From an uncultured virus (IMG/VR IMGVR_UViG_3300022861_000081) (lineage: Duplodnaviria; Heunggongvirae; Uroviricota; Caudoviricetes): DNA of 64,000 bases. The translations under genes were made by a program, and so were the position numbers. Position 1 is the stretch's first letter. The number at the start of each line of letters is the position of its first letter. This document shows, piece after piece, positions 3,330 to 64,000 of the stretch. The notes under the pieces are model-generated. The model was not told the origin of the DNA, made no database searches, and saw only the letters and a list, made by a program, of their open reading frames with translations. The stretch is from the IMG/VR virus record IMGVR_UViG_3300022861_000081. One strand, 5' to 3'.

Positions 3330-3400
3330 GGTTGCTCCTTGCTGCAATTACTTGATGGCAATGTGCAGGGACGAGCATCGCTGCCCGTCCCCAACCGTAA

Positions 3401-17093: not shown

Positions 17094-17702
17094 GTTGCGT
17101 CTATTCGGCGCACTGTAGAAGCTGTTTGATTGTTGCGCTTATCCAGCGCACTATGACTATCTTGCAACCTTTTTATAGCCAAAAAGCCGTGATGATTCTC
17201 GTGTTGCATCTACTCGATGCACTGAAACTGCCTTGTGACTTTGTGCTATTCCTTGACGCGTTGCGCTTTCTCGGCGCACTCATACGTCTATAAATATCCC
17301 TTGTGTATTATTGCGCTTATTCAGTGTATTGTTGCGCTTATCCAGCGCACTCCTACTTTGTCGCACATGTTGCATCTCTCCGATGCACTTTGACTGTACA
17401 CCCCTACCTATCCATGTTGCATCTGCTCGATGCACTCATACTGTGCTCCTCAACCTATCCATGTTGCGCCTATGCGGTGCACTGAAACCGCATTACTGCG
17501 AAATCCAAGGCTCACGTACGTTGCATCTTCTCGATGCACTTCAACCAGTCTGCTATACAGCAGACAAAAACGAATGCCAATGGAGGTTGCATCTGTTCGA
17601 TGCACTCATACGGATTTGGTACGGGATGCTGTTGTTGCGCTTATCCAGCGCACTAGAACATCTTGTCAGCTCATTCTTCAGGTTGCGCCTGCTCGACGCA
17701 CT
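17094..17702 (-). CRISPR. CRISPR array 1: 13 degenerate/minimised repeat units
   Basis: Core GTTGCRYY-N5-RRYGCACT at 17094, 17132, 17203, 17260, 17310, 17331, 17369, 17416, 17463, 17520, 17586, 17634 and 17682; period 21-71 nt; minus-strand TTGACA at 17741-17746. Confidence 0.8.
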
Positions 17703-31768: not shown

Positions 31769-31796
31769 GCAAAATGATGGCACAATGGGAGGTCAA

Positions 31797-33255: not shown

Positions 33256-34703
33256 GTTGCATCTATGCGATGCACTTCAACTGCATTGCTACCGATGAGG
33301 TAGCGCTGTCGCTACGGATTTCGCGTTGCACTTATCCAGTGCACTTCAACTGCATTACTACGCTGGTGGGTCCTTGTAAGTTGCATCTGTTCGATGCACT
33401 CAAACTACATTGCGACTCGATCAACTGCTCGACTTCGGGTAACGTGACCTCGTTGCATCTACGCGATGCACTCAAACTGCTTTGATGCTTGCTATCTTTT
33501 GGCACATTTCCATTTTTCCAGTAGTTGCATCTATGCGATGCACTGAGACTATTTTGCGACACGGAGTTGAATCAAGAAGCAATAAGCCTGTTGCATCTAT
33601 GCGATGCACTTTGACTGCTTTGCTATCCCACTAATAAGCCTTTGCAGGATCATTTTCCCAGTTGCATCTGCTCGATGCACTTTAACTACCTTGCGACCAT
33701 GTGAGAATGCTGGTGGCTCTCTCTTGACGAAGTTGCATCTGCTCGATGCACTCAAACTACATTGCGACACGGCTACGGAAGCCGTCTTGCTGCTGCTATG
33801 AATGTTGCATCTGTTCGATGCACTTTAACTACCTTGCGACGACTGTTTATGCTTTTGAACTCACACACTACGACCGTTGCATCTGTTCGATGCACTGAAA
33901 CTACATTGCGACAGCAGAAAAAATCGAGAAATGATTCCGATACCATGTTGCATCTGCTCGATGCACTGAAACTACCTTGCGACGAAACCTGGAAAACCTG
34001 TCCACCGGGACCGTAATAGTTGCATCTGCTCGATGCACTAAAACTATCTTGCGACGTTCGACTTCAGCCAAGAGAGACATGACCGCGAGTGTTGCATCTG
34101 TTCGATGCACTTAAACTATCTTGCGACCCTATAATTTGTCCAGACACTAGCGTCCACAACCGTTGCATCTGTTCGATGCACTGAAACTGCCTTGCGACGC
34201 ATGTACTCCCAAAGCGTGTACTCTTGATGCAAGTTGCATCTGTTCGATGCACTGAAACTACATTGCGGCTTGGTGAGCCCTTGGAAAGTGTTAGCAGGTC
34301 ATCAAGGTTGCATCTGTTCAATGCACTGAAACTATCTTGCGGCATGATCGAGCAGTTGAGCAATACAAGGTGCGATACGCGTTGCATCTGTTCGATGCAC
34401 TTTAACTACCTTGCGACACGAAATTGCGGGACTCTTTTACCAGGTGATGGATGTTGCATCTGTTCGATGCACTGAAACTACATTGCGACCTAAACATCAC
34501 CATGCAGGACAAGCTCGACCTCCAGTTGCATCTGTTCGATGCACTGAAACTACATTGTGACTCGCCACCTTCGGAAGAAACAAGAAGACCAGAAGTTGCA
34601 TCTGTTCGATGCACTGAAACTACATTGCGGCGGCCAGCGCCTCCGTGTTGTTGGGGTCCGAGAGCAGTTGCATCTGTTCGATGCACTGAAACTACATTGC
34701 GGC
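33256..34703 (-). CRISPR. CRISPR array 2: 21 repeats, 20 spacers
   Basis: 37-nt repeat, plus-strand consensus GTTGCATCTGTTCGATGCACTGAAACTACATTGCGAC; spacers mostly 32-37 nt, one of 18 nt; repeats most uniform at the right end. Confidence 0.97.
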
Positions 34704-37988: not shown

Positions 37989-38722
37989 GTTGCATCTATC
38001 CGATGCACTGCAACTGCATTGCTACGATGTCCATCCTAGCCAGTTTCCCATTGTTGGTTGCATCTACGCGATGCACTCAAACTACCTTGCGACCGGAGAC
38101 TACGGTGTTGCCCACCCTGATCTAGTTGTTGCATCTGTTCGATGCACTTAAACTACCTTGCTACCCCACGCCCACGTTGCTTTGAAGCGGTTGCCGTTGT
38201 TGCATCTATCCGATGCACTAAGACTATCTTGCTACACGTTTGCAGATTACCGTTATCGCATCTGGGGCGTTGCATCTATGCGATGCACTTTGACTGCTTT
38301 GTTACCTGGCAGTACACGCATGCGTGACAGTTCGAACAGTTGCATCTACTCGATGCACTTCAACTGCTTTGCTACGAAGCGGATGTGCTATTCGCTGGGT
38401 ATCTTAATGGTTGCATCTACGCGATGCACTCAAACTGCCTTGCGACCAAATGCTGGAATTTGTGAATGCAGCTTTAAAACGTTGCATCTGTTCGATGCAC
38501 TTCAACTACCTTGCGACATTGACCGAAGGTCAAGCAACTCATGCTAAGTACGTTGCATCTACTCGATGCACTGAAACTACCTTGCGACCAGCGAGACAGG
38601 TTCATCACTGGCGAGTCGTTGAAGTTGCATCTACGCGATGCACTCAAACTACATTGCGACCAGTATTTCGACCGCATGAATCGCTTTGCCATGGTTGCAT
38701 CTGCTCGATGCACTTCAACTAC
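37989..38722 (-). CRISPR. CRISPR array 3: 11 repeats, 10 spacers
   Basis: Same repeat family, with almost every repeat a different variant; spacers 31-35 nt; rightmost repeat truncated to 29 nt and abutting a GC hairpin at 38723-38751. Confidence 0.95.
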
Positions 38723-48260: not shown

Positions 48261-49978
48261 CCCGCTTTCTCCTGTTTGTTGAATAACGGTGCATCACCTT
48301 CAATGCGCAAACGCGCAATTTCCGCATATGCTGGATTGACCTCAATGCCAATAAAATTGAACCCTTCGCGCAGTGCCGCAATGCCCGTCGACCCCGATCC
48401 CATAAACAGATCGAGCACCGTTCCTTGTGGCGGGGTTACTAACCGGCACAGATACGCCATCAAGGCAATAGGTTTCACCGTTGGATGTGTATTGCTACGC
48501 ATAGTTTTTCCGCGAAGATAAGGGTTATCAATCGGGACTTTACGGCCATCGTCCACAATCTTTTCTTCAGTACCCCACAATCCTTGGTTACGCTCTTCAC
48601 GGCTTGCTTTCGCACAGTAGTAGAAACGTGCGGCAGAACCTTGATCCAACCGGCGCGCTCCTGGCTTCATCGCAAAGTTGGTGCTGCCATTCTGTTCGTA
48701 GGTGCGATTTGCGCTCGGCTCCCCTTCACGCGTATCGGGATCTACCGACTTAAAGAACCGCGCCGCAGAACCGGTATCGCCTGCATAAGCTTTTTCTTCA
48801 TAGCTTTCAAATTTTCCGTAGATTCCATCAGTCTTTGGCTGATTTCTATGCCCGCTAAAGTCTCCAGAAGATGTCTGCGGAAATGCAGCAATTACTTCAT
48901 CGCTTCCGTCGTGGATCACGTTGGCTGGCCAACGGCCAAAACCAACGTCACCAGTGCGATTGCTACCGTTTAACCCATTACCGAGAGCCACACTACGCGA
49001 CTCTGAGCGCGAAGAAAATAAAGGAACACCGTCTAACGCTTCCACACGGCACGCATCGATGTTCATCGCACCAGTGCCATATTCCAAAACATTTGCGGCC
49101 ACGGTACCGATCAGCGGCTTACGCGCAACAACTATTGGCTCGTGTGACGGTTTCAGCGCTGTGCCCCAACCTGCCCATTGCTTTGCTGCATCCGTGGCAG
49201 GCATCGTAATTGGTTGCGGCGGATAGTCGTAACTGACTCTGCGTGTCTCGCTGTACTGTTGCCCAGCTTTTCCACGGTGATAGGGAGCAGGTGCCACGAC
49301 TTCCCGTTCTTCCCCAGCCGCCTTATCGATTGCCTTGCTTACATCCAGCGATTTAGGAAAACCACTCCCATAAATCCACATGATCTGATCACGGATTTCA
49401 AAACCAGCATCTTCAATCGCGCAAGCCATCCGGTGATAAGTACGACTGCCGCCAAATGCCAGCAGATAGCCACCAGGTTTCAATACACGCAGCGCATCAA
49501 CTGCCCAGGAGAAATACCAATCCTGAAGTGCCTGCATCACATGCGCATCCGCACCATAGCTTGCGCCATTACCATTGCGAACCTTGCTACGGCCATACGG
49601 GCTATCAGGCGTCTGCATCGTGCCGTCGAATCCTTGTCGGTGATCTGTCTTCCACGGAGCATCCCAATCTTTTCCCATAAACTCCAAGCCATACGGGGGA
49701 TCAGTGACGATGGAATCCACCGACGCGTCTGCCAGCGTTTTCAGTTGCTCCGTTACGTCGCCTTCCAAGATTCGATACACGCTCGCTCCTCGCAGTTCTC
49801 TGTTTATGCCGCCGCTCGTTGCGCATGCTTCAACTTCAAATGGATTTTCTGCTGCTTTGAAATTCCCAACAGCAAGCGCCGCGATGCATCGTCGGCGCAT
49901 CTGTCGAGCTGGTCCAGAAGTGGTGGTAACTTCTCCGTCTGTTTGGCTGAAAGCCGAAACCGATTCGCGTATTTCCAC
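48257..49978 (-). CDS. DNA methyltransferase (N6-adenine/N4-cytosine, beta class)
   Basis: IVTDPPY, WIYGSGFPKS, HPTVKP, VLDLFMGSGSTG; start uncertain. Confidence 0.9.
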   Translation of the reverse strand: MEIRESVSAFSQTDGEVTTTSGPARQMRRRCIAALAVGNFKAAENPFEVEACATSGGINRELRGASVYRILEGDVTEQLKTLADASVDSIVTDPPYGLEFMGKDWDAPWKTDHRQGFDGTMQTPDSPYGRSKVRNGNGASYGADAHVMQALQDWYFSWAVDALRVLKPGGYLLAFGGSRTYHRMACAIEDAGFEIRDQIMWIYGSGFPKSLDVSKAIDKAAGEEREVVAPAPYHRGKAGQQYSETRRVSYDYPPQPITMPATDAAKQWAGWGTALKPSHEPIVVARKPLIGTVAANVLEYGTGAMNIDACRVEALDGVPLFSSRSESRSVALGNGLNGSNRTGDVGFGRWPANVIHDGSDEVIAAFPQTSSGDFSGHRNQPKTDGIYGKFESYEEKAYAGDTGSAARFFKSVDPDTREGEPSANRTYEQNGSTNFAMKPGARRLDQGSAARFYYCAKASREERNQGLWGTEEKIVDDGRKVPIDNPYLRGKTMRSNTHPTVKPIALMAYLCRLVTPPQGTVLDLFMGSGSTGIAALREGFNFIGIEVNPAYAEIARLRIEGDAPLFNKQEKAG

Positions 49979-51990: not shown

Positions 51991-52878
51991 TTACGCCACG
52001 CTTAGCACTTCGTAGGCGCGCACACCCGGCTTCAATCCCCAACGCTTCGAAGTTCGCCACCGGCCTTCGCCATAAAACTTTTCAGGGCCACACGCCACCT
52101 TGCTGAGTTTGCCGGCCGTATCCAAGCGGCAGTATTCCTTCCAGGCCGCCACCATCCCGTCGCGAATGCCGTCCAAGTCGCCGGGATAGGTCTTGAGTTC
52201 CTGCTCGGCCTGTCTGGCAATCTGGTTTCGAGCCCATTCGGTTGTCATGCCGATGGCTTCAATCACAGCCGTTGCGATCATCTGCGCTTCGTCGCTCAAC
52301 GGCTCGTTCACCCGTTGCTGCATAGTTCGTTTTTTCCATCGGTCTCTCGGGGAAAGAGAATCGCCGGGGGCATCGGCGGATTCCAGAGTTTCTCCGGAAT
52401 CTGCCCCCCTGTTCCCTGTTCCCTGTTCCCTGTTCCCTGTTCCCTGATCAGGGCGGAGCGGCTCCGTAACTTCCCCGAGGCTCTCTGGATCTTTCACGAG
52501 TAACTCTGGAGACTCTCCGGAAACTTCCGGAGTTCCTTCCCATAAGATGAGTGAAACATTGAACTTACTTTTTGTAGGGTGACTAATCTTCTGATGGTTT
52601 TTGAAATGGATGACTTGTCCGTAGCGCTTACCGTTGTAGCTGCCGAAGCGTAAATAACCGATCGATGCAAGTTCTTTCAAATATTTCGAAATATTTTTAA
52701 AATCTTTGCGTAATGGGCACGTTCCGGCACGCACAAGCACCGGATTTGCGTTGAAGTAGCCCTCGTCATCGGCGTAGCAGAGCAGCGCTTCAGCAAGAAG
52801 ATGCGCTTGCGCCGACAAGGACGAGAGTCCTTCATTCGCGTTGAACTCCGGTTTGATACTGCGTATACGACCCATCAC
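51991..52878 (-). CDS. Phage replication initiator/replisome organiser
   Basis: GRIRSIKPEF, YADDEGYF, HFKNHQKI, followed by a low-complexity linker. Confidence 0.8.
   Translation of the reverse strand: MMGRIRSIKPEFNANEGLSSLSAQAHLLAEALLCYADDEGYFNANPVLVRAGTCPLRKDFKNISKYLKELASIGYLRFGSYNGKRYGQVIHFKNHQKISHPTKSKFNVSLILWEGTPEVSGESPELLVKDPESLGEVTEPLRPDQGTGNREQGTGNRGADSGETLESADAPGDSLSPRDRWKKRTMQQRVNEPLSDEAQMIATAVIEAIGMTTEWARNQIARQAEQELKTYPGDLDGIRDGMVAAWKEYCRLDTAGKLSKVACGPEKFYGEGRWRTSKRWGLKPGVRAYEVLSVA
52407..52446. repeat. Tandem 7-mer (CCCTGTT) x5.7 inside the initiator gene; candidate origin
   Basis: Direct inspection; flanked by several TCCGGA/TCTGGA motifs. Confidence 0.7.
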
Positions 52879-53972
52879 TTATCCTTGTTTCTTTGCGCTT
52901 TTTGCTTCGAGGTACGCTTCAATGAATGCTTGTGCCGCAGGGATGCAGATTGCATCGCCGTAGAGGCGAAGTCGTCCCACGCGGGCGGCACTCCCATGAG
53001 CCAGCGGGAATGAGCCGGATTCAACTGGCCGGAACTTTCCATCCCGGCATCCAATCCAGTCAGCATCTCGCCAGAAGCCGTTAAGCGGACTGGCCCCGCG
53101 AACTTCACTGCATGTTCCAAACTCGCTGTGTGTTTCTTGCCGTCCAGCGTCATTCCCGTTGCGTCCATCACTTCCGTCGACACCGAACGGCCTCCATTCG
53201 GGGTACAGGGAGTCGGCCATGCCGCCAAGTATGCTTGTGATGGCACCCGATCCAAGCGCGTTCTCTTCGAACCGTCTGGGTTGATTCCCGTCTGTGCCAT
53301 TCCCGGCGTGTCCTTCCAATCTCGTGCGGATGGGCTCGCCCAAGCTGACAGAAACACTTGGTCCTCCAGACGGCTCTTCTTGTCCTCCGCTCGGTCTGGA
53401 TTCCCCGTGCTGTGTCCCGTTTCTGTCGAACGTGGAGTTGCCCAAGTCGCCAGATTCGCTTGGCTGTGCAGTGTGTCCGGCTTGCCCCGATGCGCTCCCG
53501 CACATTCCGAGTCCTCTGCCTTCGGCGTCGACCATGACGAAAGAGTCGCCGCGTTGCTCAGGTCGTGCGGGAAATAGTGGTTGTCCGCTGCCGTGTTGCC
53601 CCGCAGCTTGTCGTCGTGCGTCTGCGGTGTTGGCCAGTGCGTAATTTGCGCTGCTTCCGACAAGTTGACCTGGTGCCCCTGTTCTCGTCGCAACGCCGCT
53701 TTCTCCGGGTCCGCATACTCGCCGCCTCTCCGGCACGCATCCGGACTGGGCCAGGAAGTAAAGTCGTTCTTTTTCCGGTTTGGCAATGCTCGGAGTGACA
53801 TGATCGAGTTCCCGTTTGGTGTTTCTCGCGTTTTCCATACGTGTCCAAACAATCCAGATTGCAATGTTGAAGTGGTTTTACGAAGCCGCTGAAAAATCTG
53901 TTCTTGGAGTTGCTGCTCCCTGCCGCTTTCAGGTGCCAAAAGGGACATTTGCATCATGCCGCACCTCGGCAC
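52875..53972 (-). CDS. C5-cytosine methyltransferase beta-like polypeptide (W-x-T/S-P repeats, motif IX-like end)
   Basis: Six WP(S/T)P-like repeats and LNPAHSRWLMGVPPAW. Confidence 0.7.
   Translation of the reverse strand: MPRCGMMQMSLLAPESGREQQLQEQIFQRLRKTTSTLQSGLFGHVWKTRETPNGNSIMSLRALPNRKKNDFTSWPSPDACRRGGEYADPEKAALRREQGHQVNLSEAAQITHWPTPQTHDDKLRGNTAADNHYFPHDLSNAATLSSWSTPKAEDSECAGAHRGKPDTLHSQANLATWATPRSTETGHSTGNPDRAEDKKSRLEDQVFLSAWASPSARDWKDTPGMAQTGINPDGSKRTRLDRVPSQAYLAAWPTPCTPNGGRSVSTEVMDATGMTLDGKKHTASLEHAVKFAGPVRLTASGEMLTGLDAGMESSGQLNPAHSRWLMGVPPAWDDFASTAMQSASLRHKHSLKRTSKQKAQRNKDK
52879..53838 (-). CDS. C5-cytosine methyltransferase C-terminal (motif X-like) fragment in overlapping frame
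   Basis: Ends FWRDADW..RVGRLRLYGDAICIPAAQAFI. Confidence 0.6.
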   Translation of the reverse strand: MENARNTKRELDHVTPSIAKPEKERLYFLAQSGCVPERRRVCGPGESGVATRTGAPGQLVGSSANYALANTADARRQAAGQHGSGQPLFPARPEQRGDSFVMVDAEGRGLGMCGSASGQAGHTAQPSESGDLGNSTFDRNGTQHGESRPSGGQEEPSGGPSVSVSLGEPIRTRLEGHAGNGTDGNQPRRFEENALGSGAITSILGGMADSLYPEWRPFGVDGSDGRNGNDAGRQETHSEFGTCSEVRGASPLNGFWRDADWIGCRDGKFRPVESGSFPLAHGSAARVGRLRLYGDAICIPAAQAFIEAYLEAKSAKKQG

Positions 53973-54493
53973 ATTCTCCTTGCAAATTCCAAATTTTTCA
54001 GCGACTCCACAGGCCGCTTAGCCCATGAAGTCTTACCGCCAAGTGCTGCGATCTCCCGGCGGTCCATCTTGGGCAACTCGACAACGCGCCGTATTGGTTC
54101 ATGGTGCAGATGCCATTCTCTGTGGCACGGGTCGCAAAGCCAGCGCACTTCAAGCGGCTTGTTGTAGTCATCATGGTGCGCATGAATTGAACTGCGTCCG
54201 TGTTTCTGCTTGCTGTTGTCGCCGCACACTTCACACGGTTGCTGAATGAGTTTGCCGCGACAAATTGCCTTGGCCACAATCGCATGGACTCGCTTGTCGT
54301 ATGGATAACCACCCTTAAAAAAGTGGTTGTCCTCGCCCCAGCGTTGTTGCGAACGAAAGACCACATTGCGGCGTTTGAGTGCGGCATAAAGGCTATTACG
54401 TCGTTGGCCGTATGCCTTTGCGACTTCCGCGACAGAGAAGCCAGCGTTGTACATCGCAACGGCGTCTTCGAAATTCTTTCTTTTAGCTGGCAT
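53954..54493 (-). CDS. HNH-type endonuclease with N-terminal HTH
   Basis: AAGGAG RBS; PCEVCG..HAHHDDYNKPLEVRWLCDPCHREWH. Confidence 0.8.
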   Translation of the reverse strand: MPAKRKNFEDAVAMYNAGFSVAEVAKAYGQRRNSLYAALKRRNVVFRSQQRWGEDNHFFKGGYPYDKRVHAIVAKAICRGKLIQQPCEVCGDNSKQKHGRSSIHAHHDDYNKPLEVRWLCDPCHREWHLHHEPIRRVVELPKMDRREIAALGGKTSWAKRPVESLKNLEFARRMCRGAA

Positions 54494-54494
54494 A

Positions 54495-55013
54495 TCAATC
54501 GCTCCTTTCGCCAAAAAAATACAGTCTTTGTCTGATGTGAGGTGCTCCAAATCCACTAGCCGGGATATCCGCAGCAACCACCGAATAACCCGCGCTGTTC
54601 AAATCCGACTTCACCAAGTCGTACCAGCCAAGTGCCAACTTGCTCGAAACTTGTTCTCCAAAAACAATTACTGGCTTGCGTATTTGAATAAGCGGGAAAA
54701 GGGCAGGCCAAAGGTGCCGTGGGTCGTCGAATCCTTTTCCTTTGCCAGCCACAGAAAAAGAAGGGCAGGGGCAAGAAAACGTCCAGACGGGCCGGTCGTC
54801 GGGCCATCCAGCTTGACGCAGGGCGACGCTCCAGAATCCGCCACCTGCGAAGAAGTGGCATTGGGCATATCCCATAAGGTCGGCTGGTTCAACATCGACG
54901 ATGCTCCGTTCATCTACATCCCCCGGTGCAATTGCGCCTGCTTGGATGGCTTCCCGCAAGACTTCAGACTTGAAAGGATCGATCTCGTTGTAGTAAGCGC
55001 CGATCTGCATCAT
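54495..55013 (-). CDS. C5-cytosine methyltransferase catalytic N-terminal part
   Basis: YNEID, HFFAGGG, SCPCPSFS (catalytic PC), GEQV, APHIRQRLY. Confidence 0.85.
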   Translation of the reverse strand: MMQIGAYYNEIDPFKSEVLREAIQAGAIAPGDVDERSIVDVEPADLMGYAQCHFFAGGGFWSVALRQAGWPDDRPVWTFSCPCPSFSVAGKGKGFDDPRHLWPALFPLIQIRKPVIVFGEQVSSKLALGWYDLVKSDLNSAGYSVVAADIPASGFGAPHIRQRLYFFGERSD

Positions 55014-55116
55014 CTGTTCCTGCGCTCCTCAAAAAAATGCGCAAAGAATCCCCGACCGCTCAAGAAAGCAGAGTGGCAAAGTCGCATCGATTCAATGCAA
55101 TTTTTAGGTGTGGGAG

Positions 55117-55329
55117 TTACGCAGCTCTCTCGGCAGCACGCTCGGCCAGCCAGTGATCAATGTCGGCAGACAGCCAACCCATGGCACGCATGCTGAGCTT
55201 TACCGGAGCGGGGAAAGAACCCGACTTTTGGAGTGAATAGATCGTGCTAGCGCTCAGTCCGACCATCGCTACCACTTGCTTCTTACGCAGAATCGCTGGC
55301 GATCCTGGTACCTCGGTAGGTTTCTTCAT
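55117..55329 (-). CDS. AlpA-family regulator/excisionase
   Basis: ILRKKQVVAMVGLSASTIY..FPAPVKL..GWL..IDHWL. Confidence 0.9.
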   Translation of the reverse strand: MKKPTEVPGSPAILRKKQVVAMVGLSASTIYSLQKSGSFPAPVKLSMRAMGWLSADIDHWLAERAAERAA

Positions 55330-55511
55330 CTCAATATCCTCAAGCGAAACTACCGTGATTATTCGCGTTTTTTTTTGCTTTGCAAGCGGAATTTTTAAAA
55401 CTAATGCTATAAGTCGAGATAAGTCGAGAATGAGCTAAAACGTCGAGGTAAAAAGGCCGGCGCACGGGGTATTTTCCCCTCGCGGCCGGCTCGTTTTTTT
55501 AAATTTTGTTG

Positions 55512-56789
55512 TTAGGCGGCGGGAATTTCTCGCGTTGCTTTATTGCGGCACTCGTCCAAAAAATCTGCCCAGGCTTGCATCATTTGTCGACGCGGTTCAA
55601 GATATTGCGCATAGTTGTAAGCCTGTGAAACCGTATCGCCAGCTCCAGAAACATGGGAAAGTTGCGTTTCAATGTGAAGATGATTGAAACCTTTCTCGTG
55701 CAGATAGGTCGATGCAAGACCTCGCCATCCATGCCCTGTCATCGTCCGATGATAGCCAAGGCGTTTCAGCGTATGCAGCAGGATGTTGCTGCAGATCGTC
55801 TTTGATGCGTGGCCACCAATACTCGGAAACATATATTCTCCAGAACCAGAGAGTTCGTAGAGTCGCTTGAACGCATCAAGACTCTGCCGCGAAAGTGGAA
55901 CCAAGTGCGCTCTCTTTTCCTGTCTCCTGCCTTTCATCCGTTGCGGAGGAATAGCCCACAGCTTTTTTTCCCAATCGATTTCTTCCCAGCGTCCAGAAAG
56001 TAATTCTGTAGTACGCAAGAAGGTCAGACTCATCAGTTTCAGAGCAAGACACGTCACGGGATAGCCGGTGTTTTGATCCATCTTCTGAATTAGAGCAGGC
56101 AATTCAGAGAGCGAAATACGCGCAAAATGCCCTTTCACGGTTCTGGAAAGAATGTCCTCTGAACGGATACTCGTGGCGGGATTCAGACTGTTCCCGTCCA
56201 ATATTCCATTATTCTGCCCCCAGGTAAAAATCTGCCGAATCGTCTGCAAATTGCGTCGAGCACTATCATGTGAACCCCGATCATCTGTTGCTCTAATCGC
56301 ATCCACAATATCCAGGCGCTGGATGTCTTCCGGGCGCATTTTACCAAGTCGCGGAATCGTATCGCCTTCCAGCCGACGTTGAACTCTATCGATATACTTT
56401 TGGTTTTTGTCGTTTTTCCACCAAGCAAACCATTGCCGCGCCAGATTTTCAAAGTTCGGCTCGGTCGCTGTCTTTTTTTTCTTCGCAGCCAGCGCTTCTC
56501 GCAGCTCATGCTTGGCTTCCTGGCGCTCTGCCATAGGATCGGTGCCAGCGGCCAGCTTTGCCCGCGCCTCGGCGTGGAGGAGCCGTGCCTGGGCCAAAGA
56601 TACGTCAGGATATTTGCCAAAGGCCATTTGCTTCTGCTTGCCTTCACAGCGGTACTTCCAGCGCCACAGCTTTCCACCAGTCGGTGCGATGAGCAAATGA
56701 AGACCGCCGTGGTCAAAAATCTTGTAGGGCTTGGGCTTAACCGCTGCCTTTTCACACTGCAAGTTTGAAAGTTCACCCACTATTTTCAT
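55512..56789 (-). CDS. int: Tyrosine integrase, P4-like
   Basis: Arm-binding N-terminus (DHGGLHL..WRWKY..GKYPDVSL); catalytic R (LRTTE), HGWR, LSH and AYN. Confidence 0.93.
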   Translation of the reverse strand: MKIVGELSNLQCEKAAVKPKPYKIFDHGGLHLLIAPTGGKLWRWKYRCEGKQKQMAFGKYPDVSLAQARLLHAEARAKLAAGTDPMAERQEAKHELREALAAKKKKTATEPNFENLARQWFAWWKNDKNQKYIDRVQRRLEGDTIPRLGKMRPEDIQRLDIVDAIRATDDRGSHDSARRNLQTIRQIFTWGQNNGILDGNSLNPATSIRSEDILSRTVKGHFARISLSELPALIQKMDQNTGYPVTCLALKLMSLTFLRTTELLSGRWEEIDWEKKLWAIPPQRMKGRRQEKRAHLVPLSRQSLDAFKRLYELSGSGEYMFPSIGGHASKTICSNILLHTLKRLGYHRTMTGHGWRGLASTYLHEKGFNHLHIETQLSHVSGAGDTVSQAYNYAQYLEPRRQMMQAWADFLDECRNKATREIPAA

Positions 56790-56819
56790 GATTTCTACCT
56801 GTTCCTTCTCCCCGATGGC

Positions 56820-57112
56820 GTATTGGGGGCACACCGCATGAGTCAAAGTGTACCAAAAAATGCCCCCAGAAAAGCGCCGTTTACAGATGATCGTCCCCAA
56901 CTCTCCTAAACGCTAATGATTCAAAAAGTCGATAGGCAAAAAGGAGAAATCCTTTGTTCTAAATGGGTTAGAAGGGTAAAAACAGGGGAGAAACGTCGAG
57001 ATAAGTTTAGATTATATATGTGGAGTTGTGTCCTACCACGGAATACTTAGAACGAACAAAACAAAGGACTTATTCCTTGCTTTTTAAGAAGTGCCCCCAA
57101 AAATGTCCCAGC
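56820..57112. other. Putative attP region
   Basis: Non-coding, AT-rich; TGCCCCCA-like arm repeats at 56824 (inverted), 56861, 57092 and 57104; GTCGAGATAAGT shared with the alpA upstream region. Confidence 0.55.
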
Positions 57113-57172
57113 ATCGGATTTTCTTTCAAAAAGTATGTCGGCGATCACTGAGAGCGATCGCCGACATACTTT

Positions 57173-57433
57173 TCAGAGGCATGCCCTGTTCTCTAGCGTA
57201 AGTATAGTCATAGAGTGCGGACGTTGTTCTAGCGTCTGCAAAAATACTTTTAATTCGGAGGCGCGGTAACGGTATGTGCACTTGCCATTGGAACCAATCA
57301 CAAAAGCAATGCAAGGGATTTTGCCTTCATGCGCCCAGCGCTTAATCGTGTTCACGCTAAAGCCGAGATATTTGGCCGCTTCTTTGGCATCGATCAGAGG
57401 TTCAAGCGGTGGTTCTGCAGATGCGATACCCAT
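57173..57433 (-). CDS. Excisionase-like HTH (MerR/HTH_17) protein
   Basis: LIDAKEAAKYLGFSVNTIKRWAHEGKIP..YRYRASEL. Confidence 0.85.
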   Translation of the reverse strand: MGIASAEPPLEPLIDAKEAAKYLGFSVNTIKRWAHEGKIPCIAFVIGSNGKCTYRYRASELKVFLQTLEQRPHSMTILTLENRACL

Positions 57434-57778
57434 TTGCTGTACTCCTTCATGCTTCTACAAACTGTTCATTCTCAATCAATTTGCATTAACTATCCCTTTT
57501 TGAAACAGAATTCATCGGAAGTGTAGCATAAAGCAGCAAAAAATGTAAAATAACGTGAAAAAGATTTTTAGAGTGCAAAGAGGCACATAACAAAGGGCCA
57601 GCCACCGAGGAGAGACCAGCCCTTTGCAAAATAACCGCTTATGAAGAGCACCAGTTCAGAAGCGGCACCAGCACAGGCAAGAACTACCCGCCTGTTTGCA
57701 TTGAACTTCCGTTCCGATTTTCTGTCAAGACTGTTTTTTGGCAGTCCGGAATCCGGACTGCCCCCACCGCGCACAGGA

Positions 57779-58093
57779 TCAATTCGGCTTTTGGGAGCCA
57801 CTTGGGGTTGGCATCGCGTAAAGGGCCAGCTGATCCAGAACCTGGTTTGAAAATTCTTTGGAAAACGATTCTTTCCATGGATCATCCAGGTGAAACGCCG
57901 TATGGGCCAGAATTCTCCCGGCGCACTTCGGGCAGCCAAACAGAAAGTGATCCCCCTCCACGACCTCGGGGTCGTTGCTATCCTGCATAACCCAGCACAA
58001 AACCGCAGAGTGAATATCATGCTGCTTCAAAAGCGCTTCAAATGCTTTGGTGAATTCCTGGCTAGGCATCATGGTCTTCCCTCCCCCGAGCAT
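57779..58093 (-). CDS. Hypothetical protein
   Basis: GGAGGG RBS before MMPSQ. Confidence 0.45.
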   Translation of the reverse strand: MLGGGKTMMPSQEFTKAFEALLKQHDIHSAVLCWVMQDSNDPEVVEGDHFLFGCPKCAGRILAHTAFHLDDPWKESFSKEFSNQVLDQLALYAMPTPSGSQKPN

Positions 58094-58172
58094 CTTTCCC
58101 TCGGCTTACGCGGTGGCGCTCGGTTTATGCCTCGTGAGCGCCACTGTCAATGCCTTCAAATGAGCGTGTTGT

Positions 58173-58520
58173 TCAAGCCGTAGGGGCCTCAGGTGCCTTC
58201 GGCGCTTCTGGCTCGGTGGAAGGGGCAACATGATTATTCGTCCGCGTCCGACGTGGCTTATTCGATTTGTAGACATAAACGCTTTTGGAATTTGGCGGGC
58301 ACGAAACCCACAGATTATGGTTGTTGGCACTGCTGAAGGTTCGGATCACATTGGCTGCTTTTGCCGCCAAAATAGCGTTGGCAAAGTCTTCAATTGCGAC
58401 CTTCGGCAGACCGTCTTCTCCCAGCGATGCATTCAACGCCGCATCAATCAACGGCTTATACAGATCGATATGCGACTTTTTCGGGAAAGCCTTGCTTTGT
58501 TCCATCATGCGTAATGGCAT
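58173..58520 (-). CDS. Hypothetical protein
   Basis: AAGGAG RBS; about 115 aa. Confidence 0.55.
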   Translation of the reverse strand: MPLRMMEQSKAFPKKSHIDLYKPLIDAALNASLGEDGLPKVAIEDFANAILAAKAANVIRTFSSANNHNLWVSCPPNSKSVYVYKSNKPRRTRTNNHVAPSTEPEAPKAPEAPTA

Positions 58521-58652
58521 ATTGACATAGCTCCTTGGGGCTATTTTTATTACGCAAAAATCATACGCTTTCTTTGCGCTTTTTCTCCCCTATTATGCGA
58601 CCGTGGCCAAGAACAATAAACATCTGCGTTCTCTACCACGGTCGGCATGGGC

Positions 58653-59732
58653 TTACAGGAACAACTTGTCCGCAGGATCACTGCCCTTTTCTTGCTTTTT
58701 GCCAAACTGTTCTTGAATGGCATCGAGCACTTGCTGGAACTGATCCTGCCGGATCAAGTACCGATGCTGAACTTCAAACTCCTTGTCGAGAAACGCCTTG
58801 ATCTGATCTTCTGTCAGGTTCAGCTTGCGCTGAATATCGAACAGCGTCACGGCATCTTCAAAAGAAATATGGATCTTGGGGTCATGGCCAGGCCGCGTCT
58901 CCCATTCTTCCCGCTTGCTGGGCTTTTTCTGACTCGCCTTCTTGCCCAGCGAGCAGTCTGCCGTGTGGCCATTCAAGGTGCGGCACTCCGCGCAGATTAC
59001 GGCGTCTGGTGCCCGCTGCGTTCCTTCATGGCCATGGCCGCGATTGGGCTCCGAAGATACCTTGAGCGTGCCCAGCTCGCGCCGGACTTTGTCCAGCTTG
59101 TGGTTTACTGGCGGCACGGGATCTCCTTCAATCGTCGACGACACTTCCTCCGGGATATAAAACTGCCCCAGCTCTTCCGGCCAACCGCGGCGAATGGCCT
59201 TCGATTCAGCGCACTTTTCGGTCTGGCCGAGCGGCATTTTTTCCCATTGGGAGACAGGCTCCAGCTTACCTGTTGCCCGGTTTTTCTTGGTTTGCACAGA
59301 TTCCCGATAGTACGCCGTTGCGCCAAATTCTTTCCATTGCGAAGACTGTTCGTGCCATTTTTGCACCCACACTGTCACGCGAAGATTGTCTGTTCCCTGC
59401 CCTTCCACCAGCGGCAGCTTGTCAGACGGCATGTACAGGCCGGTGCGATTGGCGACCGACCGGAAGCCGTCAATGCCCACCTGGAGCACCATCCGCTCTT
59501 CATATTGGCCAGTCTCTGAATTCCATGTGCGCCGCTTGATGGCATAGATTTGCTTTTGGAGCGGATCGAGTCGCCGCACGCGCGCCACATGGCAGAACAT
59601 CATGAATTCCGGGTCAGACAACCCTGGTGCCACTGTTTGCTTGATCAGTTCAAGGTTTTCTGGCCGCTCCCAGTCCTGATTAACGACCGTCATGCCCTGC
59701 GTATTTGCGACCATCATTCCAGTTTCAGGCAT
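58653..59732 (-). CDS. bet: Bet/RecT-family single-strand annealing protein
   Basis: LDPLQKQIY, QVGIDGFRSVANRTG, WEKMP..KCAESKAIRRGWP..YIPEE. Confidence 0.88.
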   Translation of the reverse strand: MPETGMMVANTQGMTVVNQDWERPENLELIKQTVAPGLSDPEFMMFCHVARVRRLDPLQKQIYAIKRRTWNSETGQYEERMVLQVGIDGFRSVANRTGLYMPSDKLPLVEGQGTDNLRVTVWVQKWHEQSSQWKEFGATAYYRESVQTKKNRATGKLEPVSQWEKMPLGQTEKCAESKAIRRGWPEELGQFYIPEEVSSTIEGDPVPPVNHKLDKVRRELGTLKVSSEPNRGHGHEGTQRAPDAVICAECRTLNGHTADCSLGKKASQKKPSKREEWETRPGHDPKIHISFEDAVTLFDIQRKLNLTEDQIKAFLDKEFEVQHRYLIRQDQFQQVLDAIQEQFGKKQEKGSDPADKLFL

Positions 59733-60777
59733 TTTCCTCTCCTTTTGTGATCTGTACCAGCACGGGATGTCTCACATAGCCGCAGATTTGGTAATATCCG
59801 CACCATTTTCGATCGCATCCCCACCAGCTTTGATTCGCCGGTACAAAGACGCCGGTTTTCATGGCGTGGATCAAATTGGCAAAGCGGTTTAAAAATACCT
59901 GCACGTCGTCTATACTGCGTGTTGTGACCGTGGGCACGTATTTTAATGTCGGCTTTGCGGCATTCGTGCGGACCAGAAAATCCAACACCATTTTGTCGGG
60001 CAATTTCCCGTCCACGACGTAGCTGGCAGTCGCGTACGCAGTCAACTGGTTGGAATCATCGGCCGTGCCCGCTTTATTGTTCCCGTCCATGTACGACGGA
60101 GTAGGCGATTTAGCGGATGTCTTTGTGTCACGGATGACGAGCAATTCTTTATCTCCGTCATGCACAATTTCCTGCACGTCCTGCTCACCCACGAAATCAA
60201 CGCCTGTGCGGGCAGCGGCATTTAATGACCGCGCCTGTGCGTGCAGGATATTGGCCGCGTATTTGTCGGGCGTCGCTTCTGCCGAAGCGTGCAATTCTTT
60301 TGCCCGGGAGCGCAAAAAAGCGTCCATGTCCACGGAGAATTTACGGCGTGTGCGGACTGGCTGAATTTTCGGTGCCGCCTCGTCGTGGTGCAATCCGGAC
60401 AAAGAAAGCGCTTTGTCCTTTGCCTCGCCCAATACCTGGTCCAGGCTTTTGCCGTCCTTTTTCTCGTCCTGGTCGAGTTCGATGGGTTCGTTTTTCTGCT
60501 CCTGCTCGAACTTGGCGGCCGAGATCGCGAGCACGTCGTCGCGCTTCAACAGCTCCCCTGTCTCGATCTTGTGGTCGAGATCCTGCGTCACCGATTCGTC
60601 TGTGGATTTGCCCACCAGCAGAAATGCGTTCGGTGGCGACTTGATGCCGAGGATGTAGCGAAAAAGAAAGCGCTGGCCGCAATCTGCCGCCATATTCAGC
60701 GCAGAAACGTGAATTTGACGACGCAATCTAGCTTTGCTTACGATTTTGTCAAGTGAGGGCACAGGGCTCTTTTCCAT
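59725..60777 (-). CDS. PD-(D/E)XK nuclease (RecB/Cas4-like exonuclease partner of Bet)
   Basis: HVSAL..CGQRFLFRY, D..IRDTKT, QLTAY, C-terminal CDRKWCGYYQIC. Confidence 0.8.
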   Translation of the reverse strand: MEKSPVPSLDKIVSKARLRRQIHVSALNMAADCGQRFLFRYILGIKSPPNAFLLVGKSTDESVTQDLDHKIETGELLKRDDVLAISAAKFEQEQKNEPIELDQDEKKDGKSLDQVLGEAKDKALSLSGLHHDEAAPKIQPVRTRRKFSVDMDAFLRSRAKELHASAEATPDKYAANILHAQARSLNAAARTGVDFVGEQDVQEIVHDGDKELLVIRDTKTSAKSPTPSYMDGNNKAGTADDSNQLTAYATASYVVDGKLPDKMVLDFLVRTNAAKPTLKYVPTVTTRSIDDVQVFLNRFANLIHAMKTGVFVPANQSWWGCDRKWCGYYQICGYVRHPVLVQITKGEENA

Positions 60778-61265
60778 GTGACTCCTTTCACGATGGTCCA
60801 AATGCAGAACTGACTGACGCCGAACTGCTTGCCAATTTGTTTTTGTGAGGCAGATCCGCAAGAGTACATTTTCCGGATCGTTCCAACTTGTTCAAGCGTC
60901 AGCTTTGCATGGGGATTGTTTTCTCCCCACGGTTTACGGTTCTTTGCAGCAGCATCCGCTTGGTTATCTAGGTCCGTTCCTAAAAACAGATGGCTTGGAC
61001 GAACACAAAGAGTGTTGTCACAGCTATGACACACAAGTAATCTGTCAGGGATAGGACCAACAAACAACAGATACGCCAACCGATTTGCTTTGAAAACCTT
61101 ACCGTTCCACCAAATTTGTCCGTAGCGCGCCACTACGGTTCCTGTCCAGTTCCAACAGTTGCCAGTACGGTCAACATATTTCCAGAAATCCTGTGGTCGG
61201 CGCTTTCCATCAGGAATGTCAATTCGGCTGTTGCGGACTGCTTGAACAGCAGCGGCCATGTGCAT
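60738..61265 (-). CDS. HNH endonuclease
   Basis: CWNWTG, ANRLAY, VCHSCDNTLCVRPSHLFLGT..N, GENNPHAKLT, C-terminal HTH. Confidence 0.88.
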   Translation of the reverse strand: MHMAAAVQAVRNSRIDIPDGKRRPQDFWKYVDRTGNCWNWTGTVVARYGQIWWNGKVFKANRLAYLLFVGPIPDRLLVCHSCDNTLCVRPSHLFLGTDLDNQADAAAKNRKPWGENNPHAKLTLEQVGTIRKMYSCGSASQKQIGKQFGVSQFCIWTIVKGVTWKRALCPHLTKS

Positions 61266-61289
61266 GATCTCCTCAAGGCCAAAAACGAC

Positions 61290-61355
61290 AATAGCCTAGG
61301 CCATTGCCAGGCTTGAGCCATTGCTTATTCCCGCCAACCGGGGGGCATGCGTCTC
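61290..61355 (-). promoter_or_regulatory. Conserved two-hairpin leader element, copy D
   Basis: GAGACGCATGCCCCCC..GGGAATAAGCAATGGCTCAAGCC..GGCCTAGGCTATT. Confidence 0.65.
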
Positions 61356-61446
61356 TGATAATTTGAGAGATAGTCTGAATCCGATTTTTTGTCTACTGTA
61401 AAAAATTAGAGTAGACGCGCAGCGGAGTTTGCCTTATGCTGCGCGC

Positions 61447-61623
61447 ATGGAAAAGAAAACCAAGTTGACGAAAGCCGATCCAGATTTTTATAGAAAGATT
61501 GCCGCCATTGCCGGCAACAATTTGGTGCGCAAGAAGGGTACAGAATACTTTTCTAAGCTGGCGGCAAAAAGCCACCCACGCGATCATTATTTTGGCGGAC
61601 GCCCCAAGAAGAAAGTGGCGTAA
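61447..61623 (+). CDS. Small basic protein (KGG-repeat-like)
   Basis: DFYRKIAAIAG / EYFSKLAAKS internal repeat. Confidence 0.55.
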   Translation: MEKKTKLTKADPDFYRKIAAIAGNNLVRKKGTEYFSKLAAKSHPRDHYFGGRPKKKVA

Positions 61624-61679
61624 CCGATTCCTTTTTTTGCTGCCGTGCTCATGAGGCGCGAGGTTGTCGCGATTACCGG

Positions 61680-62961
61680 GTTGCATCTATTCGATGCACT
61701 AAAACCGCATTGCTACGGTGGAATGTCCACTTCTTCGTCAGACGTATACAGTTGCATCTATCCGATGCACTAAAACTGCGTTGCTACAATAATCTCCCAA
61801 TGGAGTGGGAACCCGACTATGTTGCACTTGTCCAGTGCACTAAAACTTCGTTGCTACTGTGCATGTTGACAAAAAAGGCAAACTTAAGTGGTTGCACTTG
61901 TCCAGTGCACTAAAACTGCGTTGCTACGCCCAATGTCTCCGATGATGCTCTCTGGACGAACGGGTTGCACCTGTCCAGTGCACTAAAACTTCGTTGCTAC
62001 GAGGTGCCGAGATGGGCAAAGACAACATTTATGTGGTTGCATCTATCCGATGCACTAAAACTTCGTTGCTGCGTAAAGCCGTGAAATTTACCTCGCATAT
62101 CTGGATGTTGCACTTGTCCAGTGCACTAAAACTACGTTGCTACGCCGGGTCCAGCAGGAGCACGTTATCTGTGGGCGGTTGCACTTGTCCAGTGCACTGA
62201 AACTACGTTGCTACGAGACACCCTGCACTTCATCGCAAAATTCGATGGGTTGCACTTATCCAGTGCACTAAAACTGCGTTGCTACGCGTAGTTTCATTCG
62301 AGGAGCGTACATTGTCATAGTTGCACTTGTCCAGTGCACTGAAACCGCGTTACTACTTCAGCGTGTTGCACTTGTCCAGTGCACTAAAACTGCATTACTG
62401 CGTGACAAAGCGTCAATAAAGCGCCGATTCCGAAGGTTGCACTTGTCCAGTGCACTCAAACTGCGTTGCTACAATGCCCCTCGGCTTGCCGTTTCGACGG
62501 CACTGGCGTTGCACTTGTCCAGTGCACTAAAACCGCGTTACTACACTATCGGCCAAGAGATAAGGGCGACCCAAGCAAGTTGCACTTGTCCAGCGCACTA
62601 AAACCGCATTACTACGAATCATTCATAAATTCATAGACTGCGATAAAGCGTTGCACTTGTCCAGTGCACTCAAACTGCGTTACTACTTTTGGACGAGATG
62701 GATGCAGCTGTAGGAGGAAACGTTGCACTTGTCCAGCGCACTTTAACTGCGTTGCTACTTGCTACAGTTCATACACTTGTGCGGAAGATTGGTGTTGCAC
62801 TTATCCAGTGCACTTAAACCGCGTTGCTACTTGGTTCCGTATTTTTCAAGTGCGTTGCATCTACTCGATGCACTAAAACCACGTTGCTACCTGCGCTTAA
62901 GCTCGTTACAGGCTCTGAGTTTGTGTTGCATCTGCTCGATGCACTTTGACTACGCTGGTGC
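61680..62961 (-). CRISPR. CRISPR array 4: 19 repeats, 18 spacers, adjacent to the effector
   Basis: Dominant variant GTTGCACTTGTCCAGTGCACTAAAACTGCGTTGCTAC; spacers mostly 33-36 nt, one of 8 nt and one of 23 nt; minus-strand extended -10 TGCTATAAT at 62982-62990. Confidence 0.97.
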
Positions 62962-63063
62962 CTTTTCAGCACTATAAAAACATTATAGCATCCAAAAAAT
63001 GCAAAATGCTTTGGGAGGGGGGGCAAAAATGCCCCTCCCCTGCCTCGATCTTGTTTGTTTTCA

Positions 63064-64000
63064 TCAAAGATCGTCTGTGCCGCTTTCGTCACCTTCCAGC
63101 GACTGCGTGTCTTCTTCTTCGTCTTCAAATCCCGGCGTCTGTGCGTCTTCTTCAGATTCGTCTTCATTTCCCAGCGCCAGCTTTGCCAGCTTGGGATCGC
63201 AGGCAAAGCGCGACAGATTTACCGCAGCGTTGTAATCCTGGTCAATCAGCCTTCCACATGCTTCACACTGGAAGCGATCCTTTTCCGTCGATGGATTCAG
63301 ATGATTGCAATATGAGCACATGCGCGTTGTGTTCATTGCCTCATACGGCTCAGTCACAATTCCGTATTTCACGGCAGTGTACTTGAGCAGAGAGATGAAG
63401 CGGCCAACAGCAGCAAATTGCCGGTATTTCTGCGAGCGCTTCAAGCTTACGGGATCGGTGTTCTCCTGGTGGACCGCAATTTTGGCCAGAAAGTTCTTTT
63501 CCAGGATCAACCGTGTAATGCTCTTTTTCTTCAGGTAGCTGCAAACATCATGGGCGACTTGCAGCTGGTTGTATTCAATACGCGCGCTGACTTTTTTGCT
63601 GTATGCGGCCGCAAGAGTCCCAATTTGTTCCTCGTTTTTTCCCCACGCATTCAGGATGCTCTGCACATCAACATCGTCTTTGAATTCCTCCTTGAGCCGC
63701 AGCAATCCACTACGACCGGCTTTCTCCAGCCATGCAGGCGTGTTTTCCCCAAGTTGCTTGCGCAGCGCAATCTTGGCCGTATCTTTGAAGTAGTCACGGC
63801 GAGTCTGCAACGCGGTTCTGATCTCCAACGCGTTGGGGATTCCATCTCCCGGCTTCCAATCAGGGAATAGCCGCGTGATATTGCGTTTTTCCCAGCGTGT
63901 GGGTCCCATATCGATGCGGAATGGCACACGATCTTTGTGATCTTTGGGCGATTTCTCAAAGTCCATCACAAGCTCGCGCACTGTCCAGCTCGTTGGCTCA
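63064..64000 (-). CDS. TnpB/Cas12-like RuvC effector (type V candidate), 5' end outside the window
   Basis: Frame is open to the window edge; RuvC-II-like LILE, Zn finger TTRMCSYC..FQCEACG, RuvC-III DQDYNAAVNL; 100 bp upstream of array 4 on the same strand. Confidence 0.85.
   Translation of the reverse strand, partial: EPTSWTVRELVMDFEKSPKDHKDRVPFRIDMGPTRWEKRNITRLFPDWKPGDGIPNALEIRTALQTRRDYFKDTAKIALRKQLGENTPAWLEKAGRSGLLRLKEEFKDDVDVQSILNAWGKNEEQIGTLAAAYSKKVSARIEYNQLQVAHDVCSYLKKKSITRLILEKNFLAKIAVHQENTDPVSLKRSQKYRQFAAVGRFISLLKYTAVKYGIVTEPYEAMNTTRMCSYCNHLNPSTEKDRFQCEACGRLIDQDYNAAVNLSRFACDPKLAKLALGNEDESEEDAQTPGFEDEEEDTQSLEGDESGTDDL

Follow-up and report, generated by a model that had tools for sequence, protein, structure and literature searches.

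A gene for a Cas12m-like type V effector and its CRISPR arrays in the genome of an uncultured virus of the Caudoviricetes

The effector gene and the array beside it

The CRISPR locus described here lies at the end of a 64,000-nt stretch of DNA from an uncultured virus of the Caudoviricetes (IMG/VR record IMGVR_UViG_3300022861_000081); this whole stretch is called the window below. The locus holds the 3' part of a gene for a Cas12m-like type V effector and, downstream on the same strand, a CRISPR array, A2 (Table 1). The open reading frame (ORF) comprises the last 311 codons and the stop and is open at the window edge. It contains all the motifs on which a first-pass annotation, made from the sequence, had based a TnpB/Cas12 C-terminal signature (LILE, AAVGRFISLLKY, TTRMCSYC, CEACG and DQDYNAAVNL). 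PF07282, the Cas12f1-like TNB domain of Pfam, is matched at 9.2e-14, with 51.8 bits against a cutoff of 26.3, and matches to the TnpB and Cas12f2 models of NCBIfam are far under their cutoffs. The part present in the window spans the REC2 coiled coil, RuvC-II (where RLILEKNF holds the Glu), a zinc ribbon of the form CxxC...CxxC (TNB) and RuvC-III (where IDQDYNAAVNL holds the Asp), and the TNB together with motifs II and III of RuvC bears out the first-pass assignment to type V effectors.

RuvC-I itself lies beyond the window edge, as had been supposed, and was inspected in relatives. A protein search limited to longer sequences gave 84 relatives of 563-783 amino acids (aa), the closest of which is P0001, 760 aa long and 93% identical to the window protein. 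A viral contig (L001) is syntenic with the window at 94% identity and carries the full gene (L001:5971/6001-8283). The twin P0001 has the RuvC-I Asp (in GLDVGWRR), its catalytic residues being D433, E616 and D704, and all four zinc-ribbon Cys. As the window ends before RuvC-I, the RuvC-I Asp of the window protein is read only in this 93-94% identical twin. When 37 members are aligned, the Glu of RuvC-II and the four Cys of the zinc ribbon show no or almost no variation, the Asp of RuvC-III is kept in at least 90% and the RuvC-I motif reads GLD(I/V)GWRR; what is conserved across the family is the invariant Glu, D-x-N-A-A and the four Cys. The 99 full-length members (102 candidates minus three shorter than 680 aa) measure 689-935 aa, with a median of 745. 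Their catalytic triad is DED in 61, EED in 19 and different in the other 19, where DEG (4), DQD, DAD, DKD, DPD, HQD (2), HQE, NPD and HGD occur, and the 38 members with altered triads, some of them clearly disabled, remain full-length. As a single large protein with a RuvC split into three parts (I, II and III), a TNB insert and fold matches to Cas12 structures, the protein is a type V effector (Cas12 sensu lato). At about 760 aa it is mid-sized and not minimal, which corrects the first-pass description. None of the NCBI models would name the protein, all matches being under the cutoff; one source names a family member “zinc ribbon domain-containing protein”, and the names in the protein atlas are “transposase” or TnpB-type only.

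The first repeat of A2 follows the stop codon after 102 nt, in agreement with the same-strand array of 19 repeats reported close to the ORF end. On the minus strand the repeat consensus is GTAGCAACGCAGTTTTAGTGCACTGGACAAGTGCAAC; 16 spacers measure 33-36 nt and two are truncated (23 and 8 nt). In the promoter-proximal first repeat the 5' half is degenerate and the 3' hairpin handle is kept. The extended -10 box that the first pass had placed before the array reads as TGCTATAAT and is a putative A2 promoter, which a consensus promoter scan did not call because it has no -35 match. Between stop codon and array lies a G+C-rich hairpin that resembles a terminator or attenuator; with too few T in its tail, it was not called by the terminator scan. 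For 55000-64000 Tandem Repeats Finder gave no entry, as expected when repeats are parted by unique spacers. The array of L001 has the same layout as A2, with 16/16 full-length spacers identical, and seven of the seven viral relatives have a same-strand downstream array; because of this recurrence the pairing of gene and array is far beyond chance.

Truncated spacers were seen at 62357-62364 (8 nt) and 62831-62853 (23 nt), and also at 33362-33379 (18 nt) and 33561-33589 (29 nt). The spacing that results from the 8- and 23-nt spacers is kept in the L001 array, which points to old deletions and not to assembly errors. Between the far end of A2 and an HNH gene there is a plus-strand ORF (61429-61623) of 64 aa, lysine-rich, without a family match and kept in the related contig L013.

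Table 1. Effector gene, CRISPR arrays and associated elements in the window
Feature	Position	Strand	Description
3' part of Cas12m-like type V effector gene	63064..>64000	minus	ORF; PF07282 match; 93% identity to P0001
G+C-rich hairpin	63013..63040	minus	direct reading; GGGGAGGGGCA-TTTTT-GCCCCCCCCTCCC, 24 nt past stop codon
Extended -10-like box TGCTATAAT	62990..62982	minus	direct reading; ~20 nt upstream of first repeat
CRISPR array A2	61680-62961	minus	19 repeats of 37 nt, 18 spacers
Spacer 14 of A2	62001..62035	minus	35 nt; only spacer with target found
CRISPR array A1	33256..34703	minus	21 repeats, 20 spacers; repeat variant GTCGCAATGTAGTTTCAGTGCATCGAACAGATGCAAC
CRISPR array A3	37989..38722	minus	11 handles, ~34-nt spacers
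Eroded array-like cluster A0	17094..17702	minus	9 handles (strict pattern), ~13 by eye

Kinship with Cas12m and the loci of relatives

The nearest known group is Cas12m/V-U1; profiles, hhalign, Foldseek and VIA all agree in this with the likeness to Cas12m/V-U noticed in the first pass. When PDB sequences were searched with the family profile, 23vw was best (5.4e-20 in three stretches), and 23vu (2.4e-14), a Fanzor2 chain (2.4e-12) and Cas12m2 (2e-7) were also found. No CasPhi, Cas-lambda or Cas12g chain was reached at E <= 1 in this set, which does contain CasPhi and Cas-lambda chains, as the fold comparison lists them. With hhalign, 15 Cas12m-type representatives were matched with a probability of 100 and E 1.9e-47 over 525 aligned columns, family positions 120-732 lying on 6-573 of the 584 template positions. 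The AlphaFold model of the full protein (predicted local distance difference test, pLDDT, 82.5) has long helices at 506-607, and its best Foldseek match is Cas12m2 8hhl (3e-21). In the VIA comparison Cas12m 8pm4 is best (Z 18.4, root-mean-square deviation 6.4, 451 aligned, model 105-718 on chain 1-604), Cas12m2 8hhl has Z 18.2, Cas12f about 16, and CasPhi and Cas-lambda 12.2-13.3. VIA, hhalign and the model helices all place a coiled-coil REC2 inside RuvC, as in subtype V-M.

These comparisons show homology between the effector and Cas12m (type V-M) over all of the Cas12m length, but the effector belongs to a separate and larger sister clade. The PADLOC model Cas12u1 (V-U1) matches the family at about 1e-23 and only at profile positions 228-528, whereas six bona fide Cas12m representatives (577-622 aa) fit it over its full length, with 1e-67 to 1e-112. 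When 1.84 billion representatives were searched, 2641 proteins reached E <= 0.001. In a FastTree phylogeny of 91 rows of at least 480 aa, rooted at the midpoint and built without a TnpB outgroup, the family is a 32-row clade with 100% Shimodaira-Hasegawa-like support. An 8-row sister clade of 640-730 aa stands beside it, and a branch with 100% support of the same kind separates the two from the 50-row side with the six Cas12m. The family thus lies outside the Cas12m clade, does not match the V-M profile from end to end, and with 689-935 aa exceeds the compact V-M size of about 520-650 aa. The first-pass suggestion of a possibly separate clade is supported by the tree. Its argument, a Glu kept at RuvC-II, is by itself no distinction, as Cas12m clades 3 and 4 are also D-E-D (PMC10442227, discussion). 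By VIA and hhalign, nothing in Cas12m corresponds to residues 1 to about 105, and hhalign shows an insert relative to Cas12m at about 468-505. Folded alone, the extra N-terminal domain has pLDDT >90 for residues 1-95. Neither VIA (best Z 4.3, 48,161 chains) nor Foldseek (best E 0.07) gave it a convincing structural counterpart, which does not establish a new fold.

The linkage of the family gene to a CRISPR array is stable. Among the seven viral loci L002 has arrays on both sides. Four loci come from metagenome-assembled genomes (MAGs) whose titles read Acidobacteriaceae, Terracidiphilus or Acidobacteria. In L008 an array of 4 repeats runs as far as the end of the contig, in L009 there are 3 repeats, in L010 a divergent repeat stands in a mini-array of 3 copies, and in L011 there is no array. 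The mini-array in L010 (10300-10480 of a 476-kb MAG contig) follows the family gene, and its repeat, AGTGGCTCGCACAGAGTCAAC, still folds as a short hairpin ending in AAC. In two viral loci, L005 and L007, cas4, cas1 and cas2 are situated between gene and array (Pfam 1.5e-24, 8e-93 and 8.9e-23), and the Cas1 of L005 is above the curated type I-C cutoff (473 bits vs 385). Adaptation genes were found neither in the window nor in the 6 kb upstream of the gene in L001, so the absence stated in the first pass is true of these two, whereas L005 and L007 have the module. These two loci adjoin an Erf-type annealing protein and an exonuclease, and the window locus is in the same kind of position, beside RecT and its nuclease. 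The gene adjacent to RecT encodes a PD-(D/E)XK nuclease, which belongs to the recombination module and is no cas4. In L001 a MazF/PemK toxin gene (2.9e-25) and one for a MazE-like antitoxin (3189-3901) stand about 2 kb upstream of the effector gene, in a part beyond the window edge.

The window is phage-like, as had been proposed. Comparison of its 52 ORFs with PHROGs gave a major head protein (weak, 8.6e-7), large terminase, endolysin, Ant-type anti-repressor, primase/helicase, replication initiator, a serine and a tyrosine integrase, RecT, several HNH nucleases and DNA methyltransferases, a set that indicates a temperate phage or prophage. The viral carriers in this study are temperate phages of 55-89 kb, and the stretch 61300-64000 is nearly identical in 16 runs labelled peat metagenome, some of which may be where the window comes from. 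The window further has four DNA methyltransferase-like genes (27403-28413, 48257-49978, 52875-53972 and 54495-55013), HNH nuclease genes at 9667-10239, 31671-32504, 53954-54577 and 60738-61265, and a peptide deformylase-like gene (35429-35968, 5.5e-26).

Guide RNA, further arrays and the target of one spacer

For the structure of the guide we used 131 repeats from 10 arrays, 89 of them unique. The repeat is conserved over its last 21 nt and drifts in its 5' half. The stem has six pairs, and of the 534 cells that these give over the 89 unique repeats, 520 are Watson-Crick. The pairs 23-31 (TA 57, CG 32) and 24-30 (CG 58, TA 28) covary, at positions where the extraction pattern allowed either purine or either pyrimidine. 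G18:A36 does not vary, and 88/89 repeats end in C; the extraction pattern fixed several positions, and invariance at these is partly built in. Twelve G-U pairs fit the gene strand and two the opposite strand. Outside the arrays, no complementary 14-mer with at most one mismatch that could serve as an anti-repeat was found in the window or L001. At the sequence level this is the design of a single CRISPR RNA (crRNA) without trans-activating CRISPR RNA (tracrRNA), in which a G:A pair closes the 3' stem and C is the last base of the repeat, and the tracrRNA-independent layout noticed in the first pass from the 3' hairpin followed by AC is supported by the covarying stem and by the negative search for an anti-repeat. 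The crRNA of Cas12m2 likewise has a six-pair helix, a closing G:A pair and then C(-1) (PMC10442227).

The window has 60 copies of the A2 handle, all of them on the minus strand and grouped in four clusters. The A1 repeat has the same 3' handle with compensatory stem changes. A3 begins directly past a G+C hairpin, and its first spacers are common to 4 related viral contigs. In A0 only the hairpin handle of about 21 nt is retained, at distances of 17-50 nt; two of the “spacers” are near-duplicates of 26 nt, and an acetyltransferase-like gene (17756-18283, 3e-35) stands directly beside this cluster. A0, A1 and A3 are up to 45 kb away from the effector gene. Repeat matches are also present at five places in an 89-kb viral relative (G006). 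The homologous array of this relative, L013:2700-3215 (minus), has spacers 14, 15 and 17 as in the window, with others between and before them. Contigs from RNA libraries have the same repeat variants with other flanks, which implies turnover.

Parts of A2 and of the gene are matched with 0 differences by contigs from 4 RNA libraries. The exact stretches are 61661-61970, 61792-62040, 62570-62715, 62677-62827, 62772-62988, 62953-63103, 63565-63795, 63677-63869 and 63957-64000; stretches that have no contig are no evidence of silence. One of the contigs (62953-63103, X20 record 14) spans the hairpin that follows the stop codon.

Two runs with different study codes have RNA-library contigs in which the sequence of spacer 14 stands between flanks that are not repeats, and this flank led to the metagenome contig L014, which spacer 14 and one adjacent base match exactly (35/35 nt). 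In a DUF2188 gene of 68 aa, the matched site runs over Shine-Dalgarno sequence, ATG and first eight codons, and the crRNA would be antisense to the mRNA of this gene. The flank on the non-target strand is CGGCGTTC, with TTC immediately 5' of the protospacer. TTC is the motif of type I-C systems. The protospacer-adjacent motif (PAM) of Cas12m2 is 5'-TTN (PMC10442227). Beside DUF2188, L014:1-3753 contains genes for ArdC-N anti-restriction, DUF6908 and a WYL regulator. Of 401 genomes from the family of the hosts, 94 have DNA resembling this module, as would fit a conjugative or integrative element. Over the first 2.4 kb of L014 these 94 genomes have 64-80% identity, often in several copies per genome.

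The other searches gave no further protospacer. Spacers of A2 and A1 had no match in a phage collection. For A2, the 401 host-family genomes gave 0 matches, with 2 candidates scored per genome, and the four MAGs with the family gave repeat-level similarity only. The 38 window spacers found only array copies in the window and L001-L007 at up to 6 mismatches, and 131 spacers compared with all loci examined, the window included, found only L014 at up to 4. In 274 kb around ArdC-type elements, 134 spacers at up to 5 mismatches gave 1 match, again L014, and shuffled spacers gave 0. In the viral collection the full spacer 14 and three 24-nt spacer seeds found only arrays of related phages or nothing, and the flank of the L014 target was not found there.

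Mechanism and comparison with known systems

From all these results we consider that the end of the window probably holds the 3' part of a type V CRISPR system of the Cas12m lineage that is borne by the phage and functional. What we infer about processing, PAM, binding against cutting, and biological role is as follows. The arrays would be transcribed on the strand of the gene and the pre-crRNA cut within the repeats without tracrRNA, so that in each crRNA the spacer would follow a 5' handle some 20 nt long (a hairpin, AGUGCAYY-loop-RRUGCA, closed by G:A, then C). The complex would find double-stranded DNA matching the spacer beside a T-rich 5' PAM (TTC in the one case) and block or destroy it. 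Its targets would be rival mobile elements in the same Acidobacteriaceae hosts, namely conjugative or integrative elements and other phages. As relatives have a type I-C-like cas4-cas1-cas2 module that the phage itself lacks, spacers would be gained in those relatives or with host enzymes, and would spread by recombination between arrays. By analogy with Cas12m, binding and transcriptional silencing seem likelier than cleavage, because the triad drifts, D-E-D Cas12m variants are among the tested effectors reported to protect by DNA binding and not by cleavage (PMC11013384), and the one target is on a translation start.

Several points weigh against this interpretation. One protospacer was found among 134 spacers, so PAM and target class rest on n = 1. 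The G-U counts are not independent events and the extraction pattern fixed some repeat positions, the contigs of the RNA libraries give no strand, ends or level and may reflect DNA carry-over, and the tree that separates the clade is a midpoint-rooted FastTree lacking TnpB, of rows of at least 480 aa. The most degenerate repeat of A2 is the first one, by the presumed promoter, which is unusual for arrays still gaining spacers at the promoter end, and the spacers of L001 are exactly those of the window, with no turnover seen between those two. The function of the clade is moreover argued from sequence, model and analogy with Cas12m. Finally, the window protein and its twin keep D-E-D and the zinc ribbon, and DNA cleavage is therefore possible.

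An active nuclease, with an intact D-E-D RuvC that cuts rival elements as CasPhi, Cas-lambda and Cas12a do, is the alternative that we take most seriously, even if we think it rather unlikely. It would agree with the complete set of catalytic and zinc-ribbon residues in P0001, with DED as the majority state (61/99) and with the full adaptation module of some relatives, which is typical of interference-competent systems. However, 38/99 triads are altered, DEG, DQD, DAD, HQD and NPD among them, in proteins that stay full-length, and the sole target covers a ribosome-binding site and start codon, which is suited to silencing. The nearest characterised family does not cut even with D-E-D, and Cas12m2 in which DED was restored did not regain cleavage (PMC11013384, PMC10442227). 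The arrays could also be regulatory, the effector acting as a programmable repressor on host-resident elements or on its own and kin genomes, for example in the control of superinfection or lysogeny, with most spacers being old fixed guides. The identity of 16/16 full spacers although the L001 effector differs by 6-7% in protein, the first A3 spacers common to the window and 4 viral contigs, the dispersal of four arrays between genes, the eroded A0 with handles only and the target on a translation start could all be read in this way. We nevertheless judge it improbable, since the window is unmatched by spacers (38 at up to 6 mismatches, 131 at up to 4), in L013 differing spacers stand among the shared ones, RNA-library contigs in which these repeats have other flanks speak for turnover, and relatives have cas1-cas2-cas4. 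Least credible, to the point of being nearly dismissed, is a transposon-type TnpB or a decaying relic beside unrelated repeats without guide function. NCBIfam TnpB models are the only named matches of the protein, the atlas names are all “transposase” or TnpB-type, and the MAG locus L011 has no array. But the scores of TnpB models are far under their cutoffs (NF040570 43.6 vs 100, NF038280 29.3 vs 350, NF038281 26.8 vs 425), and the protein is about twice the size of TnpB and has the REC lobes of Cas12m. Arrays are present at 7/7 viral loci, the repeat hairpin covaries, and no transposase occurs among the scanned neighbours, although transposon ends were not searched for.

Within the preferred interpretation, a guide-directed system of the Cas12m lineage, a more specific picture can be drawn, which we offer as tentative and rate as somewhat more doubtful than not. 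The locus may represent an undescribed type V subtype, sister to V-M, with an effector of about 750 aa, a new N-terminal domain and a 37-nt repeat with a Cas12m-like handle. In its complete form it would have a captured type I-C adaptation module selecting the same TTC motif that the effector reads, and it would be deployed from several arrays by temperate Acidobacteriaceae phages to silence competing conjugative or integrative elements. The Cas12m lineage would extend beyond small effectors that come without adaptation genes: the protein of this branch is larger by about 150 residues, has in addition a domain without structural match, and is accompanied by cas4-cas1-cas2 in some phages. Such loci could form a natural series of how a binding-only or weakly cutting effector joins or leaves a complete adaptive system. 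They may also add a further case of a temperate phage that aims CRISPR guides at another class of mobile elements, here at a translation start. As tools, members of the family may be of use in being tracrRNA-free, having a short handle and differing naturally in their catalytic site, from DED to clearly dead.

Among known systems, TnpB of IS200/IS605 and IS607 shares the core of RuvC and zinc ribbon. The family differs in being about twice as large, linked to arrays, without transposase neighbours among those seen and under all curated cutoffs. CasPhi (Cas12j) and Cas-lambda are alike in being phage-borne, 700-800 aa long and crRNA-only, and their repeats have a 3' hairpin, as the family repeat does. 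However, they have no sequence match to the family (E <= 1), their Z is 12-13 vs 18 for Cas12m, and they belong to huge phages, while the viral carriers in this study are temperate phages of 55-89 kb. Cas12r of the Thermus Lalka phages, whose spacers target integrative elements of the host, also belongs to a phage-encoded type V system; its repeats are degenerate, it has a truncated mini-spacer, and adaptation genes are absent (preprint 10.64898/2026.04.20.719267). It belongs to another effector family, with 29-bp repeats, an ARG PAM and a crRNA in which the spacer is 5' and the repeat part 3'.

The closest resemblance is to Cas12m of subtype V-M (MmCas12m2 8hhl and 8hio; 8pm4; 23vw and 23vu), with whole-length homology, the best fold match and the same order of WED, REC1, RuvC-I, coiled-coil REC2, RuvC-II, zinc ribbon and RuvC-III. 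Alike are also the crRNA-only layout with a six-pair helix closed by G:A and a final C, the T-rich 5' flank (TTC here, n = 1; TTN in Cas12m2, TTN/YTN for subtype V-M) and the drifting catalytic triad, a gradual loss of which is described for subtype V-M (PMC10691335). The family differs as a separate clade with a partial V-U1 match, by its length (689-935 vs about 520-650 aa), by the extra N-terminal domain (1 to about 105) and by the insert at about 468-505. Some of its members have cas4-cas1-cas2, whereas PMC10691335 describes V-M as array-only, other cas genes lacking.

Phage-encoded homologs of Cas12m are known from IMG/VR, measuring 623-999 aa with D-E-D in 9/21 (PMC11576732, section 12), and from a myxophage, the 610-aa MvCas12m (preprint 10.64898/2026.09.14.751636). 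They share with the family a viral origin, an adjacent array, usually no adaptation genes and often a larger size than bacterial proteins. The contig identifiers of the six or seven viral members of the family are absent from supplements 1-12 (without 7), 16 and 17 of PMC11576732, where one sample number is shared, but on a different contig. The family motifs are absent from the candidate table of that paper, and one supplement of PMC10691335 has no matching accession. A description of the clade was not found in the literature searched, and a name or V-U number for it is possible in the data of PMC10691335 and PMC12669027 (V-U6 to V-U45, V-O, V-P, V-Q). Of the 66 viral Cas12m rows listed in PMC11576732, the 60 examined fit the Cas12m model nearly end to end, and the family does not. 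Phage-borne loci of the Cas12m type are therefore already in print, and what the present locus represents is an enlarged and so far uncharacterised clade.

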